DNA of 64,000 bases from Escherichia coli (GTDB lineage: Bacteria > Pseudomonadota > Gammaproteobacteria > Enterobacterales > Enterobacteriaceae): NCBI RefSeq assembly GCF_003334405.1, contig NZ_QOWM01000012.1; one strand, given 5' to 3'. The translations under genes were made by a program, and so were the position numbers. The notes beneath the pieces are model-generated. The model saw only the letters and a list, made by a program, of their open reading frames with translations, was not told the DNA's origin and made no database searches. Positions within the stretch are counted from its first letter, which is position 1. Every line of letters begins with the position of its first letter. This document shows, in pieces, positions 1-26,032 of the stretch.

Positions 1-2534
1 GTGTTTTTCGTCCCCAAATCCGTACTGGATGCGCTGGCGCTGTGGGTGTGCGATTTAATGCCGTCCTGTTCCTGAGACAATACGGCACGACCACTGGCGG
101 GTTTGCCCTTAATCGTCCAGCCACGCATATCAGGGATCACGCCTGACGGATAAGCGGCTGCAAGTTTCGGGTATGCAGATTTGTCAAAAGTCTGTCCCTG
201 CATCAGGGCATAGCCAGACGGAACGGTATCTGATGGCCACGGGATTGGTGCGCCAGGCGGATAAAACTGCTCTGATGGCGTATAGAGTGAATAAACTGTA
301 CCGTCCGTTAACCCTTCCGGCTTATTAGCAGAATATGCTGGTGACGTATGAATCGTCACGCTGGCATTACTGGTATAATCCCATTGAATATTTACACCAG
401 TCGCATAATTTCCGATTGCAACGTAAATATCGTAAGTATCACCAGATGTATTGACCCAGGCAAAATTTGTAAACCCTGTCGATGTGCGCTGCCATAAAGC
501 ACCAGTAATCCCCTTCGGATTACCATTACCTGCACGCAAAACAAGTTCAGATATACCTGCCTGTTGAGGTGACCCCACGTTAAATCCCGCGCCACCAATC
601 AACGTAATTGAAACAACAGAACTCGCCTGTGGCATGGTTACCGTTGCTAATTTGAACCAACCAGCACCACCGCTGAATGACATTGTTGTTGAGTTAAGCG
701 TACCAATATCTTTCGGCGTCAGTGTTATATCCGCTGAAAGCGCCTTACCATTCACCTTACGGGCAGAAGGTACCCGACCATTCGCATTATCATTAGCTGC
801 TTTCACTGCTTTCGGTGTCGCGGCAAGCGTTTCAGATGCGCTGTTGGTTGCACTACTGAGCTGGACAATTCCTTTTTGTGCTGTCGTAGCGTCCTGAGCA
901 GTATATTTCCCGTTAGCAAGGTCATAGGCTGCCTTTACCGACTTTGGCGTTGCCGCCAGCATTTCAGATGTGCTGTTGGTCGCGTTGCTAAGCTGAACTA
1001 TCCCTTTCTGTGCTGTCGTTGCATCCTGTGCGGTGTATTTCCCGTTAGCCAGCTCATACGCGGCCTTAACGGCTTTTGGCGTTGCCGCCAGTGACTCGGA
1101 AGTGCTGTTAGTCGCACTGCTGAGCTGTACTATCCCCTTTTTCGTCGTGCTCGCATCCTCAAGCGCCACGGCGGATGCAATATCCTCTGCCCGTTTTGCC
1201 GCTGTCTCGGCGCGCGTTGCCGCGGATTCCGCCGTACTTTTGCTCTGAGCTGCCGCCGTCGCACTGCCAGCTGCCTCTGTCGCCTTCGTGGATGCCGTCG
1301 TGGCGCTGCCCTTTGCTGCTGACGCCTGTCTGGTCGCCTCATCTTTTGAAGCAGACGCAGATGATGCCGATGACGCCGCCGAACTGGCGGACGATGCGGC
1401 AGCCGTTTTTGAGGATTCTGCGCTGGTTTCCGACGCTTTCGCGTTCGTCTCGGATGTCTTCGCTGCGGAAGCAGACCTCGCTGCTGCGCTGGCCTGTACA
1501 GCGGCTTCGCCAGCCTTCGTTGTGGCTGTTGAAGCAGACGATGCAGCACTTTCTGCCGATTTTCCGGCGGCGGTGGCACTGGCTGAGGCCTGCCCGGCAC
1601 TTGTTGACGCGGCACTGGCAGATAATGCAGCCGCTGTTTTTGAGCCTGCCGCAGCTGAGGCGCTCTGTCCCGCTGCCGTTTCAGAAGACCTGGCGTTCGT
1701 CTCGGACGTTTTTGCCGCCTTCGCAGAATTTGCTGCCGCCGTTGCCGAGGAAGCTGCGCTGCTGGCGCTCGAGGCTGCGTTCGTTTCTGATGATTTTGCC
1801 GCCTCTTTTGAAGCCGACGCATCCCGTGCTGAAGTGGCTGCTTCTGACGCTTTCGTGGTCGCGGTGGATGCAGAAGTGGCTGCTGATTGTTGTGACGCTG
1901 CCGCATTCGTTTCTGACGTTTTCGCCGCACCGGCACTGGTAGCCGCCGCGCTTTTTGAGGACTCTGCAGCGGCAGCACTTTTTGATGCCTCAGAGGCTTT
2001 TGCTGATGCCGTTCCTGCGCTGGAAAAAGCCTCCTGAGCCGACGTCGCGGCCTGTCCGGCTGACGTGCTGGCTGCACGTGCTGAGCCTGCAGCATCAGTC
2101 GCATGGGTTGCCGCCTCACTGGCAGATGTGCTGGCATCACTGGCTGACTTCTTCGCGGCTGCCGTGTTCTGTGCCACTGCGGACGCGTTACGCACCACCT
2201 CTTCCACCATCAGTTCAAAACGTCGCAATGCCTCCGGACGGGCATCATCCTCCGTCATGGCACCGAGAAAATCATTCAGCGTACCGGGTTGAGAATCTTC
2301 ATACACGGTGATGGTCCCGGCATGTGACGGCGGGAATCCTTCCACCAACAGAATAACGCTGTACTGACCGTACTCAACGTCCATGCTGTAACGCCCGGCT
2401 TCATCCGGATTTTCTGAGGCCAGCGTGTTCACCACCACCGTGGTGCTGTTACGTTTTGCTTTCAGCTGGATTGTGCAGTTCTGTACCGGTTTTCCTGTGC
2501 CGTCTTTCAGTACACCTGAAATCTTTACTGCCAT
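1..2534 (-). CDS. stf: Side tail fiber protein Stf, partial (C-terminal end lies beyond the window start)
   Basis: Minus-strand ATG at 2534 gives [30 protein letters not shown]..., matching the lambda Stf N-terminus; a fragment at 1141-1200 translates [19 protein letters not shown] in the same frame; my manual scan of that frame from 1140 to 1 found no stop. Absent from the ORF track because it has no stop inside the window. Confidence 0.8.
780..1150. repeat. About 2.5 tandem copies of a ~132-bp unit inside stf (44-aa peptide repeat)
   Basis: Recurring blocks gctgttggt...tttcccgttagc...ggcgttgccgccag at ~132-bp spacing. Confidence 0.6.
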
Positions 2535-2545
2535 ATTCACCCCAC

Positions 2546-2576
2546 AAAAAAGCCCGCCTGAACCGGCGGGCTGTCA
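2546..2576 (-). terminator. Putative rho-independent terminator between lom and stf
   Basis: Minus-strand hairpin gcccgccggttcaggcgggc followed by a T-run. Confidence 0.5.
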
Positions 2577-2598
2577 TAACACTGTGTTACCTGGCTAA

Positions 2599-3198
2599 TC
2601 AGAATTTATAACCGACACCCATGATGAAACCGTCAGTGCGCCAGTCGCCACTGCCGGAGCCTTCATAAGCAATATCAATGGCCACGGATTCGGTCGGGTT
2701 AAACTGCACGCCAGCTCCCCACGCCAGAGACGTGTTGCTGTGGCGACCGTCATCACTTCCGGTCAGCACGTCGTGCGTTTTCCCCTTGTTGTCAGTTACG
2801 CGGAGATAATCCCCGGAGAAAGTCGACACACGGCTGTAAGCCACACCCGCCATCGCATACGCGCTGAACCATTCATTCACGCGCACAGACGGCCCCGCCA
2901 TCACGCTGAACCAGCGGTTACGAACGGAATCTTCATGCCAGCGGGTATCGCTGTAATGGGTCAGCTGGCGATTCTTGTCTCCTGCATAGCTGAATGACGT
3001 CACCATCCCCAGTGTGTCCGTAAACTCATAACGGTATTTCACGTTAATCCCGTTCAGATCATCGCTGCCGGGAACGTTCGTCGAGGCATGAAGATACCCC
3101 GCGCTCAGCGTGGACTGATGTTCAGATGCCCATGCAGGCGCACCGGATACGGCCAGACAAATGGCTGCGGAAAAAATGGCGGCATAAAGTTTACGCAT
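2599..3198 (-). CDS. lom: Lom/Ail-family outer membrane beta-barrel protein
   Basis: 199-aa ORF with signal peptide MRKLYAAIFSAAICLAVSGAPAWA and C-terminal GVGYKF; sits between J and stf as in lambda. Confidence 0.85.
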   Translation of the reverse strand: MRKLYAAIFSAAICLAVSGAPAWASEHQSTLSAGYLHASTNVPGSDDLNGINVKYRYEFTDTLGMVTSFSYAGDKNRQLTHYSDTRWHEDSVRNRWFSVMAGPSVRVNEWFSAYAMAGVAYSRVSTFSGDYLRVTDNKGKTHDVLTGSDDGRHSNTSLAWGAGVQFNPTESVAIDIAYEGSGSGDWRTDGFIMGVGYKF

Positions 3199-19009: not shown

Positions 19010-19947
19010 CCCCTGAATCCTGCCGGGATCTGGCTGTAGTCCACGTTGTCGTAACTGGCTTTGAAGTACGGGTCTTCGCGTTTTTCGGTGTACGTGCTGA
19101 CGGACGGCGTTAAGCGCAGGGAAAGCTCATCCCATTTTTCCCGCAGCTTCGACGGGCTGAGCACGTTACGGCACCAGAACGGATCGCGACTGACGCGGCT
19201 GTACATCTCGCAGATTTGTTTATGAGTACGACCATCCTGCACACACATCAGGCGAATTTCGTTTGCCCAGGCTGTCCAGTTCGGTTCTTTGGGACGAACC
19301 ACCTCGCCGTCACATTCGGCGGCATGCTCGTACAGGGCGATGATTTTTTTCCAGAGCCACTGTGCGCAGGTCAAATCATCCTGCGTTCCCCACTGGCGCT
19401 TTTTAGGGCTGAATACAACCGCATCAGGATGGCGAGTTAAAAACTCCTGTTCAGCCGTCTGCGTGTCCGGTTGCGAAGCGTCCGGACGAGAAGTTTTTTT
19501 ATCTGACGGATCATGTTTTGATTTTACTGACGGATCCCCGCCAGATTCTGACGGGTGAAAACCCGCTTTTTTGCCAGATTTCGACGCATCAAATTTTGAC
19601 GGGTCAGATTTTGATGCGTCAGATTTTGACGGGTCAGAATCTGACAGTTGAGAAAATGCCGCTGCCTGAAGCTTCGCAACGTTAAGCTGATAAACATTCG
19701 ACGCATTGCGGTTACCCTGGCGACGCGCCTTACGCGTTAACCAACCTTCTGCTTCCAGCCGTGCGATAGCCGTCCTGACGGTACTCATCCCCGCGCCAAT
19801 CTGACGGGCAATGGTTTCAATTGATGGCCAGCACACACCTTCGTCATTACTGAAATCAGCCAGGCGGGCCATAATTGCCACGCTGGATAATTTCATGCCT
19901 GACGCTGCGCAACCATCCCATACATAGCCGGTTAATTTAGTGCTCAT
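19006..19947 (-). CDS. Replication initiation protein (O-like replisome organiser) containing the ori iterons
   Basis: 313-aa ORF; N-terminal HTH region; internal peptide repeat SDPSKSDASKSDPSKFDASKSG encoded by DNA direct repeats. Confidence 0.7.
   Translation of the reverse strand: MSTKLTGYVWDGCAASGMKLSSVAIMARLADFSNDEGVCWPSIETIARQIGAGMSTVRTAIARLEAEGWLTRKARRQGNRNASNVYQLNVAKLQAAAFSQLSDSDPSKSDASKSDPSKFDASKSGKKAGFHPSESGGDPSVKSKHDPSDKKTSRPDASQPDTQTAEQEFLTRHPDAVVFSPKKRQWGTQDDLTCAQWLWKKIIALYEHAAECDGEVVRPKEPNWTAWANEIRLMCVQDGRTHKQICEMYSRVSRDPFWCRNVLSPSKLREKWDELSLRLTPSVSTYTEKREDPYFKASYDNVDYSQIPAGFRG
19520..19660. repeat. Iteron-like direct repeats (putative phage ori) inside the replication gene
   Basis: Repeated units tttgacgggtcagattttgatgcgtcagattttgacgggtcagaatctgac and variants. 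Confidence 0.5.
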
Positions 19948-21087: not shown

Positions 21088-21177
21088 ACAATATGTACCT
21101 CCGGTATACATATTACATGATTGAAATGAACCTTCAAGATACTTGTACCTTAACGGTACAAGGGTTTTAATTTCGTT
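21088..21177. promoter_or_regulatory. Divergent cI/cro promoter-operator region with palindromic operators
   Basis: CTTGTACC-ttaac-GGTACAAG perfect inverted repeat and ATATGTACC-tcc-GGTATACATAT; more TGTACC half-sites at 21890-21925. Confidence 0.5.
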
Positions 21178-21852
21178 ATGAAAACAATCCATGACATCCG
21201 GCGGTCTAACGCCAGAAAACTGAGAGATGGTGTTGGCGGGAATTCTTCCTTTGCCACTATGATTGATCGCGAGCCAACCCAAACCAGCAGGTTTATGGGA
21301 GATGGTGCTACTAAAAATATCGGTGACAGCATGGCACGACACATCGAAAAATGTTTCGACCTGCCTGTCGGATGGCTCGATCAAGAACACCAGACAACGA
21401 ACATCACAAAAAAACCTGATGTTTCAATCACTAATAAACAAATCACATTAGTCCCTGTCATATCATGGGTACAGGCCGGAGCATGGAAAGAAGTTGGATA
21501 TTCTGAGGTTGATTTGAGCACAGCAGAAACGTATCCCTGCCCTGTACCCTGTGGGGAAATGACTTATATCTTGCGGGTGATAGGTGATTCAATGATTGAT
21601 GAGTACCGCCCGGGAGACATGATTTTTGTCGATCCTGAAGTACCTGCCTGCCACGGTGACGACGTTATTGCATTGATGCACGATACAGGTGAAACCACCT
21701 TCAAAAGGTTGATAGAAGATGGGACACAGCGTTATCTCAAAGCGTTAAACCCAAACTGGCCTGAGCCTTACATTAAGATCAACGGTAATTGCTCTATAAT
21801 TGGTACTGTGATTTTCTCAGGAAAACCAAGAAGATACAAAATCAAAGCTTAA
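21178..21852 (+). CDS. CI-like prophage repressor with LexA-type S24 autopeptidase domain
   Basis: 224-aa ORF; C-terminal half has the S24 Ser/Lys dyad context (VIGDSMIDEY ... TFKRL). Confidence 0.8.
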   Translation: MKTIHDIRRSNARKLRDGVGGNSSFATMIDREPTQTSRFMGDGATKNIGDSMARHIEKCFDLPVGWLDQEHQTTNITKKPDVSITNKQITLVPVISWVQAGAWKEVGYSEVDLSTAETYPCPVPCGEMTYILRVIGDSMIDEYRPGDMIFVDPEVPACHGDDVIALMHDTGETTFKRLIEDGTQRYLKALNPNWPEPYIKINGNCSIIGTVIFSGKPRRYKIKA

Positions 21853-21855
21853 TCA

Positions 21856-21882
21856 ATGTTTATGAACCTGCTTCGGCAGGTT
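21856..21882 (+). terminator. Rho-independent terminator after the repressor gene
   Basis: gaacctgcttcggcaggttttttta. Confidence 0.5.
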
Positions 21883-22086
21883 TTTTTATACTTGACAATG
21901 TACCTTTGAGATACATAATGTACCCAAGAGAAACAACAAACAGGCAGGACGCTCACGAAGTAGCCGCCTGGGGCATATGAAGTCCAGGATGATTCGTTAG
22001 CAACAAAAAAGCGCCCTACAGGACGCTTAGCTCTTTAACAATCTGGTCCCCATCAACAAGTAACTGATAACTTGAGGAGGTGTGAA

Positions 22087-22293
22087 ATGCACAAAACAGA
22101 ACCCAAAATCGTTGCGCCTGGCTACACAGATGAGGAAATTTATGAGTGGATGACAAAGAAGCTGGCAGCTATAAACCAGCTTCGTGAAGTGCTGTCTTAT
22201 CGACAGGAAACAATAGACTCCTTAAAAAAACTGGATCAGGAAATCACGGTTTTATCACAGGATGTTACTTTAGATATTGTGCAGACAAATTAG
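22087..22293 (+). CDS. Hypothetical small protein
   Basis: ATG preceded by gaggagg; MHKTEPKIVAPGYTDEEIYEWMTKKLAAINQLREV...; AT-rich island. Confidence 0.4.
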   Translation: MHKTEPKIVAPGYTDEEIYEWMTKKLAAINQLREVLSYRQETIDSLKKLDQEITVLSQDVTLDIVQTN

Positions 22294-22699
22294 GATCCCA
22301 TTCATTTTCGTCAAAATCATCAAAGTGATGAATTTGTGATCTCCAGTCTCGATAATCTAAAAATTTCTGGGCGGTTACGCTTATTTTATCAAGTGTGAGT
22401 TCATCCTGAATTGAAAGAAGAAGTTCATCAAATTTCATCTCATTAATCTGTTTTGGCATCCAGTGATGCTTCATCAGAATAAGGTGAACCAGTGCCTTTT
22501 TCCCATTCAACTGATTATAGGGAGTGCCGAATTTCTTCCGGTGCTCATGTAAGACAAGGTCCAGAAGAGTAAGTAATGTTGCCCTTGATTCCACTTTGCT
22601 TATTTCGACTGATGACACTACCCCACTGATTTCAATGCCCCGATACTTTCCAACATTTTCACAGTGGGATTTGTACAGCGTGTAGATATTACCGGACAT
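22265..22699 (-). CDS. Hypothetical protein, candidate moron
   Basis: 144-aa ORF in an AT-rich island, convergent with the previous ORF; no recognisable motif. Confidence 0.45.
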   Translation of the reverse strand: MSGNIYTLYKSHCENVGKYRGIEISGVVSSVEISKVESRATLLTLLDLVLHEHRKKFGTPYNQLNGKKALVHLILMKHHWMPKQINEMKFDELLLSIQDELTLDKISVTAQKFLDYRDWRSQIHHFDDFDENEWDPNLSAQYLK

Positions 22700-22739
22700 T
22701 TCTTTTCCTTTTGCGTTGTTGGGGATAACCAGATTAACC

Positions 22740-23200
22740 GAATCCTTGTTGTTGGGGAATAACCAGGTCCACCTCGCCTGATGTGGCTAAAAGCAGGCAC
22801 ATAACAGCTAAGTATTTTTAACCAGAGAGAATCCTTAGCGTTGTGGTGAATGCGGCTCAGCGCACGCGGGTTAAGGTTGAGGCTGACAGTCGACCTTCTG
22901 TGGATACCCACCCGTCTGGTGTGCAACCTTCGCCAGGCACCGGGAGGCACCCGGCACCACAACTTTATGCTGTGTGTAGTCCTGGAGGTACCAGTTTGTA
23001 CCCTTGCTTCCGGCTGGTACCGTCCTTTTTACAAAACAGAGAAGAGCATCACCGGACGACGGGCTCATAACCCAATCCATCCGGGCGGCTGCCACCGCAG
23101 GTGTTCTTCTCTGTTTTGTGGAGAAACTAACCGCCCCTACGGGGGCATTCATGGAAATGTAATTGACTCAATAATCGCCGGACGGTGAGGGCTTCCTTTT
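22740..23200. other. GC-rich ORF-free segment, candidate structured non-coding RNA or decayed gene
   Basis: All overlapping ORFs are Arg/Pro-rich and look non-coding; long-range complementarity GTTGTGGTG...CACCACAAC and local stem GGTACCAG...CTGGTACC. Confidence 0.3.
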
Positions 23201-24438: not shown

Positions 24439-24788
24439 TGGAGCCATACAGCCTCACACTCGATGAGGCCTGTCATTTTCTCAAGATATCCAGACCGACT
24501 GCCATTAACTGGATACGCACAGGGCGTCTTCAGGCAACACGCAAAGATCCCACTAAGAATAAATCTCCTTACCTCACAACACGACAAGCCTGCATTGCGG
24601 CTCTTCAGTCTCCGCTGCATACTGTCCAGGTGAGCGCGGGTGATGGCATAACAGAGGAAAGAAAATGTCACTCTTCCGCAGAGGTGAAATATGGTACGCC
24701 AGTTTCACATTGCCGAACGGTAAAAGATTTAAACAGTCTCTTGGAACAAAGGACAAAAGGCAGGCGACAGAACTCCATGACAAGCTAA
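24438..24788 (+). CDS. xis: Excisionase (P22 Xis-like, long form)
   Basis: Starts [37 protein letters not shown] (HTH); ~117 aa, overlapping the int start as in P22. Confidence 0.6.
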
Positions 24789-25828
24789 AGGCTGAAGCAT
24801 GGCGGGTCAGCAAACTTGGTGAAATACCTGATATAACGTTCGAGGAAGCGTGTGTCAGGTGGCTTGAAGAGAAAGCATATAAAAAATCACTGGACGATGA
24901 CAAAAGCCGGATCGGATTCTGGCTTCAACATTTCGCAGGAATGCAACTAAGAGACATTACTGAATCAAAAATTTATTCAGCAATGCAGAAAATGACGAAC
25001 CGGCGTCATGAGGAAAACTGGAAACTCAGGGCAGAAGCATGCAGAAAAAAAGGGAAACCTGTTCCAGAATACACGCCAAAACCAGCGTCCGTTGCAACGA
25101 AGGCTACGCATCTTTCATTTATAAAGGCCCTACTAAGAGCCGCAGAGCGTGAATGGAAAATGCTGGATAAGGCACCAATTATTAAAGTGCCTCAACCAAA
25201 GAATAAACGGATCCGCTGGCTGGAGCCCCATGAAGCACAAAGGCTGATTGATGAATGTCCGGAGCCATTAAAGTCTGTTGTTGAATTTGCACTGGCAACA
25301 GGCTTAAGACGCTCGAACATCATCAACCTTGAATGGCAACAAATAGATATGCAGCGCCGGGTGGCATGGATAAACCCGGAAGAGAGTAAATCAAACCGCG
25401 CAATCGGCGTTGCGCTGAATGATACTGCATGTCGCGTTTTGAAAAAACAAATCGGGAATCATCACCGTTGGGTATTTGTGTACAAGGAAAGCTGTACCAA
25501 ACCAGACGGAACGAAAGCGCCAACAGTAAGGAAGATGCGGTATGACGCAAACACAGCCTGGAAAGCGGCGCTGAGACGGGCTGGTATTGATGATTTCAGA
25601 TTTCACGACTTGAGACACACCTGGGCAAGTTGGCTGGTTCAAGCCGGAGTCCCGTTGTCAGTGTTACAGGAAATGGGAGGCTGGGAGTCTATCGAAATGG
25701 TTCGTCGATATGCTCACCTTGCACCTAATCACCTTACCGAACACGCACGGCAAATAGACTCGATCCTGAACCCATCGGTCCCAAATTCGTCCCAGTCAAA
25801 AAATAAGGAAGGTACTAATGATGTGTAA
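24665..25828 (+). CDS. int: Tyrosine integrase (P22 Int-like), thrW-specific
   Basis: 387-aa [37 protein letters not shown]...; catalytic region [39 protein letters not shown]; adjacent to the tRNA-Thr 3' end. Confidence 0.9.
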
Positions 25829-25841
25829 CTTATTGATTTAA

Positions 25842-25917
25842 ATGGTGCCGATAATAGGAGTCGAACCTACGACCTTCGCATTACGAATGCGCTGCTCTAC
25901 CAACTGAGCTATATCGG
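25842..25917 (-). tRNA. thrW: tRNA-Thr (anticodon CGU)
   Basis: Minus-strand read GCCGATATAGCTCAGTTGGTAGAGCAGCGCATTCGTAATGCGAAGGTCGTAGGTTCGACTCCTATTATCGGCACCA; coordinates +/-1. Confidence 0.9.
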
Positions 25918-26032
25918 CCCTGAAAGGACATGTTCACGAACGTGAATCACGGTGGACAAGGTTAAAACTAACCGGGCGATGCGTCAATGGCCTTGTGAAT
26001 CAAATGGCTACTTTTGCATCACCCGGTTTTAT

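Follow-up and report, generated by a model that had tools for sequence, protein, structure and literature searches.

Whether two small genes that overlap tail to tail beside a prophage repressor are simply packed together, or act together, is the question raised by the locus described here. The locus lies in a 64,000 nucleotide (nt) stretch of Escherichia coli DNA (RefSeq assembly GCF_003334405.1, contig NZ_QOWM01000012.1), the whole of which is called the window below, and it consists of ORF68, a + strand open reading frame (ORF) of 68 amino acids (aa), and ORF144, a 144-aa ORF on the opposite strand. We find that the two are conserved as a convergent, 3'-overlapping pair in prophages across Enterobacterales and that the larger gene opposes the lytic operon in which it sits. 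Much more tentatively, we propose that they are a new family pair built in the manner of a prophage defense/counter-defense noncontiguous operon, a reading that we consider possible rather than established.

Results

ORF68 and ORF144 are conserved protein-coding genes

An initial annotation of the window had described a 68-aa and a 144-aa ORF on opposite strands that overlap at their 3' ends, the smaller preceded by a strong Shine-Dalgarno (SD) sequence, gaggagg, and all of these features are present (Table 1). It had the pair begin at 22072, where an in-frame TTG would make a 73-aa version of ORF68; however, the downstream ATG given in Table 1 is favored because homologues start with MHK, MQK or MER. 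Both genes are annotated by RefSeq. The further statement that neither protein carries a recognizable motif holds for both in regards to Pfam (E<=10), PADLOC and PDB sequences, but it does not extend to phage-specific families. Specifically, ORF68 matches phrog_1744 over residues 1-68 of 68 (6e-35), while ORF144 matches phrog_5286 over its full length (1.5e-90) as well as the equivalent NCBIfam family NF033230 (ECs1072 family phage-associated protein), where residues 4-144 align with positions 2-142 of the 142-position profile at 157.8 bits (E 1.7e-46), the curated cut-off being 70 bits. Relative to diverged homologues, and with synonymous sites near saturation, the ratio of nonsynonymous to synonymous substitution rates (dN/dS) is 0.14-0.27 for ORF68 and 0.09-0.38 for ORF144. 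Both ORFs are intact in 77 of the 78 full-length copies of the cassette in IMG/VR (37 distinct nucleotide sequences, with 12 intact amino acid variants of ORF68), and 408 of 5426 complete E. coli genomes carry the cassette. The full-length PHROG matches, the purifying selection, this intactness and this distribution together indicate that ORF68 and ORF144 are real protein-coding genes, beyond chance.

ORF144 has a grand average of hydropathicity (GRAVY) of -0.47, an isoelectric point (pI) of 6.4 and no membrane segment. A word-indexed search recovered only close relatives, and the family was assembled with an exhaustive profile search that yielded 76 representatives at 50% clustering, all of them single-domain proteins of 145-157 aa. 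Positions conserved in the family are, in ORF144 numbering, R39, L46, D/E47, H/Y53-R54, L64, G66, A69-L70, H72, K77, W80 and W134-P136. An AlphaFold model built with the family alignment is all-helical, with a predicted local distance difference test (pLDDT) score of 93.4 and a predicted template modeling (pTM) score of 0.88, and the relatives that Foldseek retrieves with it from AFDB50 come from Escherichia, Proteus, Citrobacter, Enterobacter, Klebsiella, Serratia, Xenorhabdus, Photorhabdus, Yersinia, Salmonella, Hamiltonella, Pectobacterium and Morganella. Scans of IMG/VR with P0096 and P0077 found nothing, and tblastn of P0129 gave no phage record. The transcript of ECs1072 has been detected by microarray in the Sakai lysogen, where it changed 2.1-fold with growth phase (PMC2241611).

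ORF68 is acidic (pI 4.8) and soluble (GRAVY about -0.5), with a conserved N-terminal motif, EPxIxAxGx(S/T)x(E/D)E(I/L)xxW, that is followed by a helical or coiled-coil-like tail. The gene contains a run of seven A at 22224-22230, and frame-shifted versions that diverge at this run occur in Escherichia albertii (L004, 80 aa; comparison loci carry L numbers throughout) and in the database proteins P0054, P0064 and P0067. These versions could be sequencing errors or slippage.

The convergent overlap recurs with a shared partner motif

The pairing itself, a structure that the initial annotation missed, is the central observation. A motif-bearing, convergent, 3'-overlapping small ORF is found in 10 of the 13 ORF144-family lineages examined, with ORF68 homologues opposite ORF144 homologues in L005, L008, L009, L011, L094, L096, L099, L103, L107 and L110, and with overlaps from 14 to about 317 nt in length. 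At L105 an ORF overlaps convergently as well, but its resemblance is faint. The N-termini of the partners can be compared in the window (TEPKIVAPGYTDEEIYEWMTKKL), L008 (KEPVIIANGNTVEEVYQWMEKKL), L009 (SKPYIYAGNLSDSELIKWLEERV), L096 (REPYIYAGDLNAEELLAWLEHRF), L099 (REPRLFRGDYTDKQLIDWLNKLV) and Sakai (NSPHIWRGGLSDVELAEWLIHKA); the partners from L008, L009, L094 and L099 match phrog_1744 weakly. A profile made from eight partner N-termini was searched against 3481 six-frame ORFs from 17 sources and matched solely ORFs in the convergent position, including three at loci outside its training set (Sakai Sp4, 6e-11; L107, 1.4e-8; L110, 1.9e-12). In Sakai Sp4 this partner of ECs1072 (now ECs_5703), the founding gene of the family, is unannotated in RefSeq; it lies at 19117-19677 (+) of L103 (O157:H7 Sakai, NC_002695.2) and accounts for the longest overlap, covering the 3' part of ECs1072. 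The two proteins also diverge in parallel, with identities of 52%/52% between the window and L005 and of 38%/41% between the window and L008.

The pair occupies four prophage positions with one orientation

Homologous pairs have four kinds of location. Downstream of cI, on the early-left (PL) side, they are found in the window, L004, L008 and L097/098. On the early-right (PR) side, L009, L011 and Sakai Sp4 carry them between cro/cII and the replication genes, and in Sakai Sp4 ECs1072 is flanked by a cII-like gene and O. In L094/095 the pair separates Q from the holin gene, and in the P2-like prophages L099-101 it is inside the early operon, with cox on one side and replication gene A on the other. 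Occurrence in four different prophage positions indicates that the pair moves as a unit. The initial annotation had named lack of conservation in related prophages as an outcome that would refute its reading; instead, the pair is conserved in at least these four positions across Enterobacterales. Flanks are informative in 12 lineages, and in every one of these the ORF144-family gene runs against the adjacent lytic operon, while any small gene that is present is co-directional with that operon. The probability of this 12/12 orientation is about 2e-4 under random orientation.

In the window, the prophage is lambdoid, of the SfIV/SfV/SfII type, and is integrated at thrW; positions 21850-23137 are 98.6% identical to Shigella phage SfIV. 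The + strand carries cI, an HD phosphohydrolase gene homologous to yfdR, xis and int, and the - strand carries the early-right genes (cro, a cII-like gene and replication genes). This + strand layout indicates that the + strand is the PL direction. As originally noted, the pair sits in a low-GC island between repressor and integrase: GC content is 0.37-0.41 across 22100-22700 and 0.45-0.58 in the flanks. Relative to SfV, both ORFs fall within a single replaceable segment (21999-22768, ~770 bp) where SfV has orf33 and a terminator, and the slot downstream of cI is variable, with other E. coli prophages having other single opposing ORFs there. This variability, together with a SieB gene that stands beside the ORF144 homologue of L096 in the same orientation, agrees with the suggestion in the initial annotation that this is a position for superinfection-exclusion or abortive-infection genes. 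Kinship of either protein with RexA/B or SieB was rejected, as both are soluble and without a match in Pfam, PADLOC or PDB. An exclusion or abortive-infection moron would be a plausible description of ORF144. Accessory neighbors elsewhere include HicAB (L107) and a gene resembling ParE (L011).

Transcription signals of the pair and a predicted opposed expression

ORF68 is the first ORF behind a PL-like promoter that matches the sigma-70 consensus at 11 of 12 positions, and an operator-like site covers the spacer and -10 region of this promoter (Table 1). The half-sites of this operator-like site are the same as those of the OR palindromes in the cI-cro intergenic region, an example being TGTACCTTAACGGTACA at 21143-21159. 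Where the immunity region of a phage is different, similarity to the window starts only at 21935, which fits an immunity-specific PL. The PL-like promoter would be expected to drive ORF68 in lytic growth, with ORF68 repressed in the lysogen and expressed early after induction.

On the opposite strand an intrinsic terminator lies just beyond the start codon of ORF68, and it is kept in L005 and L102; comparable hairpins occur just past the partner start in L094, L097 and L099 and are absent from some loci. An ORF144 transcript ending at this terminator would be antisense to the whole of ORF68, including its SD sequence. The 60-100 nt upstream of ORF144 are far more conserved than the coding sequence in the window, L004, L005 and L102, which encode proteins that are 35-52% identical. 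A promoter candidate chosen by hand in this leader, TTCCCC-17-TAATCT, is the best available but weak, and was not retained.

Inverted repeats bracket the pair, and these may represent one sense-strand motif (AATCTGG..TCCCCAxCAACAAG) that is present in both convergent 5' leaders. Long-range RNA pairing of the ORF144 5' leader with the 3' untranslated region was considered and is unsupported, as the predicted duplex energy stood out from that of shuffled sequences in the window only (5 of 300, compared with 154 of 300 for L005 and 37 of 300 for L102). In CsrA-repressed mRNAs two binding sites are laid out in a characteristic manner, and the ORF144 leader, whose sense strand contains ACAAGGAU, resembles this two-site layout through ACAAGGAU and a GGA within its SD sequence (22700-22770), a resemblance that may be coincidence. 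A phage-encoded CsrA homologue adjoins the module in three Xenorhabdus-type loci (L008 2-187, -; L111 1486-1746, +; L112 3074-3334, +).

Table 1. Coordinates of the gene pair, its signals and flanking features (window positions unless a locus is named).
Feature	Position	Strand	Remarks
ORF68, 68 aa	22087-22293	+	ATG at 22087; SD GAGGAGG at 22074-22080, 6 nt upstream of ATG
ORF144, 144 aa	22265-22699	-	ECs1072 family; soluble, predicted all-helical
Overlap of ORF68 and ORF144 3' coding ends	22265-22293		29 nt
PL-like sigma-70 promoter, TTGACA-16-CATAAT	21892-21919	+	Promoter scan; 11/12 consensus; in phage backbone, outside cassette
Operator-like site TGTACCTTTGAGATACA	21899-21915		Covers spacer and -10 region of PL-like promoter
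Intrinsic terminator on ORF144 strand	22001-22028	-	Terminator scan and hairpin scan; 59-86 nt beyond ORF68 start codon (59-78 nt for the segment 22028-22009)
Conserved leader/promoter region of ORF144	22700-22801	-	SD AAGGA
Direct repeat GGGGATAACCAGATTAACC in ORF144 leader	22721-22739		
Direct repeat GGGAATAACCAGGTCCACC in ORF144 leader	22755-22773		
Inverted repeats bracketing pair, left arm	22040-22060		I1, 20 nt, 75% complementary; I3, 14 nt, 93%
Inverted repeats bracketing pair, right arms	22716-22735; 22745-22758		
cI-type repressor, 224 aa	21178-21852	+	Helix-turn-helix and S24 peptidase; phrog_4 transcriptional repressor, 1.7e-49; named cI in SfIV and SfV
Intrinsic terminator of cI	21864-21890	+	Terminator scan; putative rho-independent terminator in SfV annotation
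int	24665-25828		ORF68/ORF144 pair lies between cI and int
tRNA-Thr	25843-25918		proA directly beyond
MIQDSGQEK family member, L111	1178-1474	-	
MIQDSGQEK family member, L112	2763-3128	-	
MIQDSGQEK family member, L113	2673-2984	-	

The slot exchanges its cargo, and ORF68-like genes face a second family

The leader (22715-22768) and the terminator (22001-22048) are common to other E. coli prophage cassettes at the slot (L006, L007, L114), and in its behavior the slot is thus a minus-strand 'expression socket' that stays fixed while its cargo is exchanged. The alternative cassettes of L006, L007 and SfV (orf33) were checked and are neither ORF144-family members nor known defense proteins.

A reciprocal search, in which ORF68-like genes were sought in one genome per species, found six loci. 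Some of these revealed a second opposing family with the sequence 'MIQDSGQEK...IEIETAAFNRIIHSILK' or 'MIQDSGQEK..LKQIEIETAAFNRIIHSILK..EQR' (Table 1), whose member in L112 has no PADLOC or PHROG match. L008 and L112 have a common backbone and share the first ~60 residues of the partner, and the opposing gene and the C-terminus of the partner are swapped together. In Morganella L113 there are tandem ORF68-like paralogues at 2242-2445 and 2465-2773 (+), and the opposing gene overlaps the second only. L109 has almost the same genes as E. albertii L108, and its contig bears the label 'MAG: Collinsella sp.', which suggests that an enterobacterial contig was mis-binned into an actinobacterial metagenome-assembled genome (MAG).

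Additional analysis of the region just after the cassette revealed a GC-rich, largely unannotated block on the strand of the PL transcript (22769-23144). At 22810-23032 (+) it has a sub-threshold match to STnc100, an Rfam family of prophage small RNAs (38.4 bits relative to a gathering score of 47, E 8e-6), and the block is kept in 65 phage records including SfIV, SfV, SfII, ST64B, mEp460, cdtI and Stx2c phages. The SfIV ORFs annotated across it (SfIV_34, SfIV_35) are probably spurious. A 2026 preprint has linked STnc100 with the PasD prophage small RNAs. A put-type antiterminator RNA was also considered for this block, and HK022 is not among the matches listed (40 of the 65 records).

Discussion

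A tentative defense/counter-defense model and the observations that weigh against it

The model that we tentatively favor is that ORF144 and ORF68 are a portable antisense module, made up of two genes, in the temperate phages of enterobacteria. ORF144 would be made in the lysogen, from its own leader to the terminator beyond ORF68, and would serve as an accessory effector, for which an anti-phage protein of the exclusion or abortive-infection type is the likeliest identity. ORF68 would be made only after induction or infection, from the repressor-controlled PL-like promoter, and would neutralize ORF144 and so spare the lytic cycle of its own prophage, with PL transcription running head-on into ORF144 transcription. 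Both elements of a noncontiguous-operon layout are seen in this family, namely an effector candidate opposite the lytic operon (12 of 12) and a small overlapping gene within the lytic operon (10 of 13). We regard as rather unlikely, although worth stating, a more far-reaching version in which the ECs1072 family is a new, structurally novel anti-phage effector across Enterobacterales and ORF68-like proteins are modular lytic-phase antidotes, each with a conserved N-terminal docking motif and a variable C-terminus that is encoded antisense to its target effector, that serve at least two unrelated effector families (the ORF144-like proteins and the MIQDSGQEK proteins of Xenorhabdus and Morganella phages).

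Several observations weigh against the proposed module. The Foldseek search of AFDB50 with the ORF144 model returned 'uncharacterized protein' entries only and no informative fold relative, and among the PADLOC-DB 2.0 defense models no family matched ORF68 or ORF144 at E<=1. The promoter scan of the ORF144 leader found no consensus sigma-70 promoter, so that lysogen expression of ORF144 is conjectural for this phage. The partner is absent or degenerate opposite the ORF144 homologues of L003 and L102, and the alternative cassettes that use the same leader and terminator each have a different single opposing ORF without a partner (171 aa, phrog_1244; 167 aa, phrog_3983; one disrupted by IS2). 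The reciprocal search also showed the association to be one-sided: an ORF144 homologue lies opposite only one of the six, the Serratia gene (L110); the three from Xenorhabdus (L111 and L112) and Morganella (L113) are convergently overlapped by the unrelated family of ~85-100 aa, and nothing opposes the remaining two (E. albertii type, L108/L109).

Alternative explanations

Much of this is what would be expected if the two genes are independent, with ORF68-like proteins being ordinary early-operon proteins, ORF144 a lysogeny-expressed moron in a pre-existing minus-strand socket, and the overlap a product of a hotspot and compact packing. ORF68-like genes that lack an ORF144 homologue in five of six species-representative genomes, ORF144 homologues that lack a partner, cassettes that share the leader and terminator without any partner, and a common backbone and partner N-terminal part beside different opposing genes in L008 and L112 all fit such independence. 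What it does not anticipate is that the partner accompanies ORF144 homologues in four unrelated positions, including the P2-like and Q-holin ones, which is unexpected of a backbone gene; that both genes lie inside one 770-bp replaceable cassette relative to SfV; that the two proteins diverge in parallel; and that the C-terminal part of the partner is swapped along with the opposing gene. These swaps can be read either as a modular antidote scaffold with an effector-linked variable C-terminus or as independent early proteins at a hotspot, and we give the former more weight because ORF144 homologues keep their partner in four unrelated genomic positions. Independence is nevertheless a serious rival, even though as an account of the whole locus we judge it unlikely. 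A toxin-antitoxin (TA) or addiction module, in which either ORF144 or ORF68 would be a toxin checked by the other protein and by antisense RNA and would stabilize the prophage or kill on infection, is more doubtful still. A small acidic protein and a larger one tightly linked by overlap, transcripts that would be fully complementary across ORF68, and TA genes near related loci (HicAB, ParE-like) are all suggestive of such a module. However, the genes are convergent, unlike the co-transcribed genes of type II systems; a GRAVY of about -0.5 and the absence of a membrane segment set both proteins apart from the small hydrophobic toxins of type I; no similarity to toxin or antitoxin families is seen in Pfam, NCBIfam or PADLOC; and the strict 12/12 orientation relative to lytic operons is unexpected for a free-standing pair. 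A type II system in particular was rejected on the convergent gene order and on the lack of TA domains in Pfam and NCBIfam.

Least probable among these alternatives is a life-cycle regulator, in which transcription of ORF144, or perhaps its protein, would damp leaky early-lytic expression and stabilize lysogeny in the way that lambda OOP RNA acts against cII, ORF68 would relieve this brake after induction, and no superinfecting phage would be involved. In lambda, oop lies in the cII-O interval, and the PR-side member of the ORF144 family lies in the same interval and points toward cII, cro and cI; in addition, the arrangement relative to PL or PR is head-on without exception. Transcription of the phi80 late operon lowers TaiEcA, so such interference does operate in phages (PMC11364771). 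Against a regulator stand the dispensability of the module, which SfV and many relatives do without, its presence in late and P2-type operons where it would have no control over the lysogeny decision, and the strong protein-level conservation of a 145-aa fold that a purely transcriptional brake would not need.

The module is present in ~7.5% of complete E. coli genomes and has relatives in Salmonella, Klebsiella, Serratia, Yersinia, Proteus, Xenorhabdus, Photorhabdus and Hamiltonella. Work on prophage defenses that must not harm their own phage (BstA, Tha/Ith, Tai/Ati, Tab, TERi) is recent and advances quickly. If the defense/counter-defense reading is true, the pair would add a new effector fold and a new type of antidote, as well as a rule for genomic searches, namely to look for a gene that opposes the lytic operon and at its 3' end overlaps a small ORF of that operon. 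Otherwise, the pair would still offer studies of transcriptional interference a clear natural example of conserved genes that overlap convergently.

Comparison with known systems

In map position, between the repressor and the early-left genes, the pair resembles the lambda/P22 SieB and lambda RexAB genes, and lambda sieB likewise points against PL. SieB is a membrane protein, whereas ORF144 is soluble and matches neither PF14163 nor another Pfam family (E<=10). A likeness to BstA/aba of Salmonella phage BTP1 (Owen et al., 2021; PMC8585504) is found in a prophage-encoded gene beside the repressor and in self-immunity of the prophage during its own lytic cycle; the self-immunity element of BstA differs in being a DNA site and not a protein. 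The BstA models in PADLOC do not match ORF144.

The closer parallels are systems in which the same layout has been found experimentally to couple defense to lysogeny and counter-defense to lysis, namely Tai/Ati (PMC11364771), Tha/Ith (PMC11087260) and TERi (bioRxiv 10.1101/2025.02.27.640495). In TERi (TerI, anti-TerI1, anti-TerI2), which belongs to Listeria comK prophages and thus to a Gram-positive host, TerI is a 65-aa protein that targets the terminase small subunit, and the likeness is one of layout (bioRxiv 10.1101/2025.02.27.640495). In Staphylococcus aureus phage 80alpha, polymerase collisions keep the two expression states of the antisense tha/ith unit from occurring together (Rostol et al., 2024; PMC11087260), so that the noncontiguous operon and head-on transcription are shared with our model, and there the main antidote is a small inhibitor protein (PMC11087260). 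Tai/Ati (tail assembly inhibition and the matching counter-defense), known from E. coli phage phi80 and Salmonella prophages, is likewise an enterobacterial prophage moron system with an effector opposite a lytic operon that carries a small overlapping gene. Specifically, in phi80 the defense gene taiEcA is opposite to and interrupts the Q-dependent operon and overlaps the small counter-defense gene atiEcA; TaiEcA is made in the lysogen, and deletion of atiEcA leads to autoimmunity that is suppressed by insertions in taiEcA (PMC11364771). A cognate Tai-Ati pair from Salmonella has also been found to interact (He et al., 2024; PMC11364771). The phi80 genes overlap at their 5' ends and are divergent, whereas ORF68 and ORF144 overlap at their 3' ends and are convergent. 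Homology of ORF144 to Tai was tested and rejected (TaiEcA, phi80 gp52, 204 aa, relative to the ORF144 family; hhalign probability 0.8%), and AtiEcA and ORF68, compared by eye only, have no visible resemblance. By its anatomy, then, the ORF68/ORF144 module appears to belong beside the noncontiguous-operon systems while lying outside the Tai/Ati protein families.

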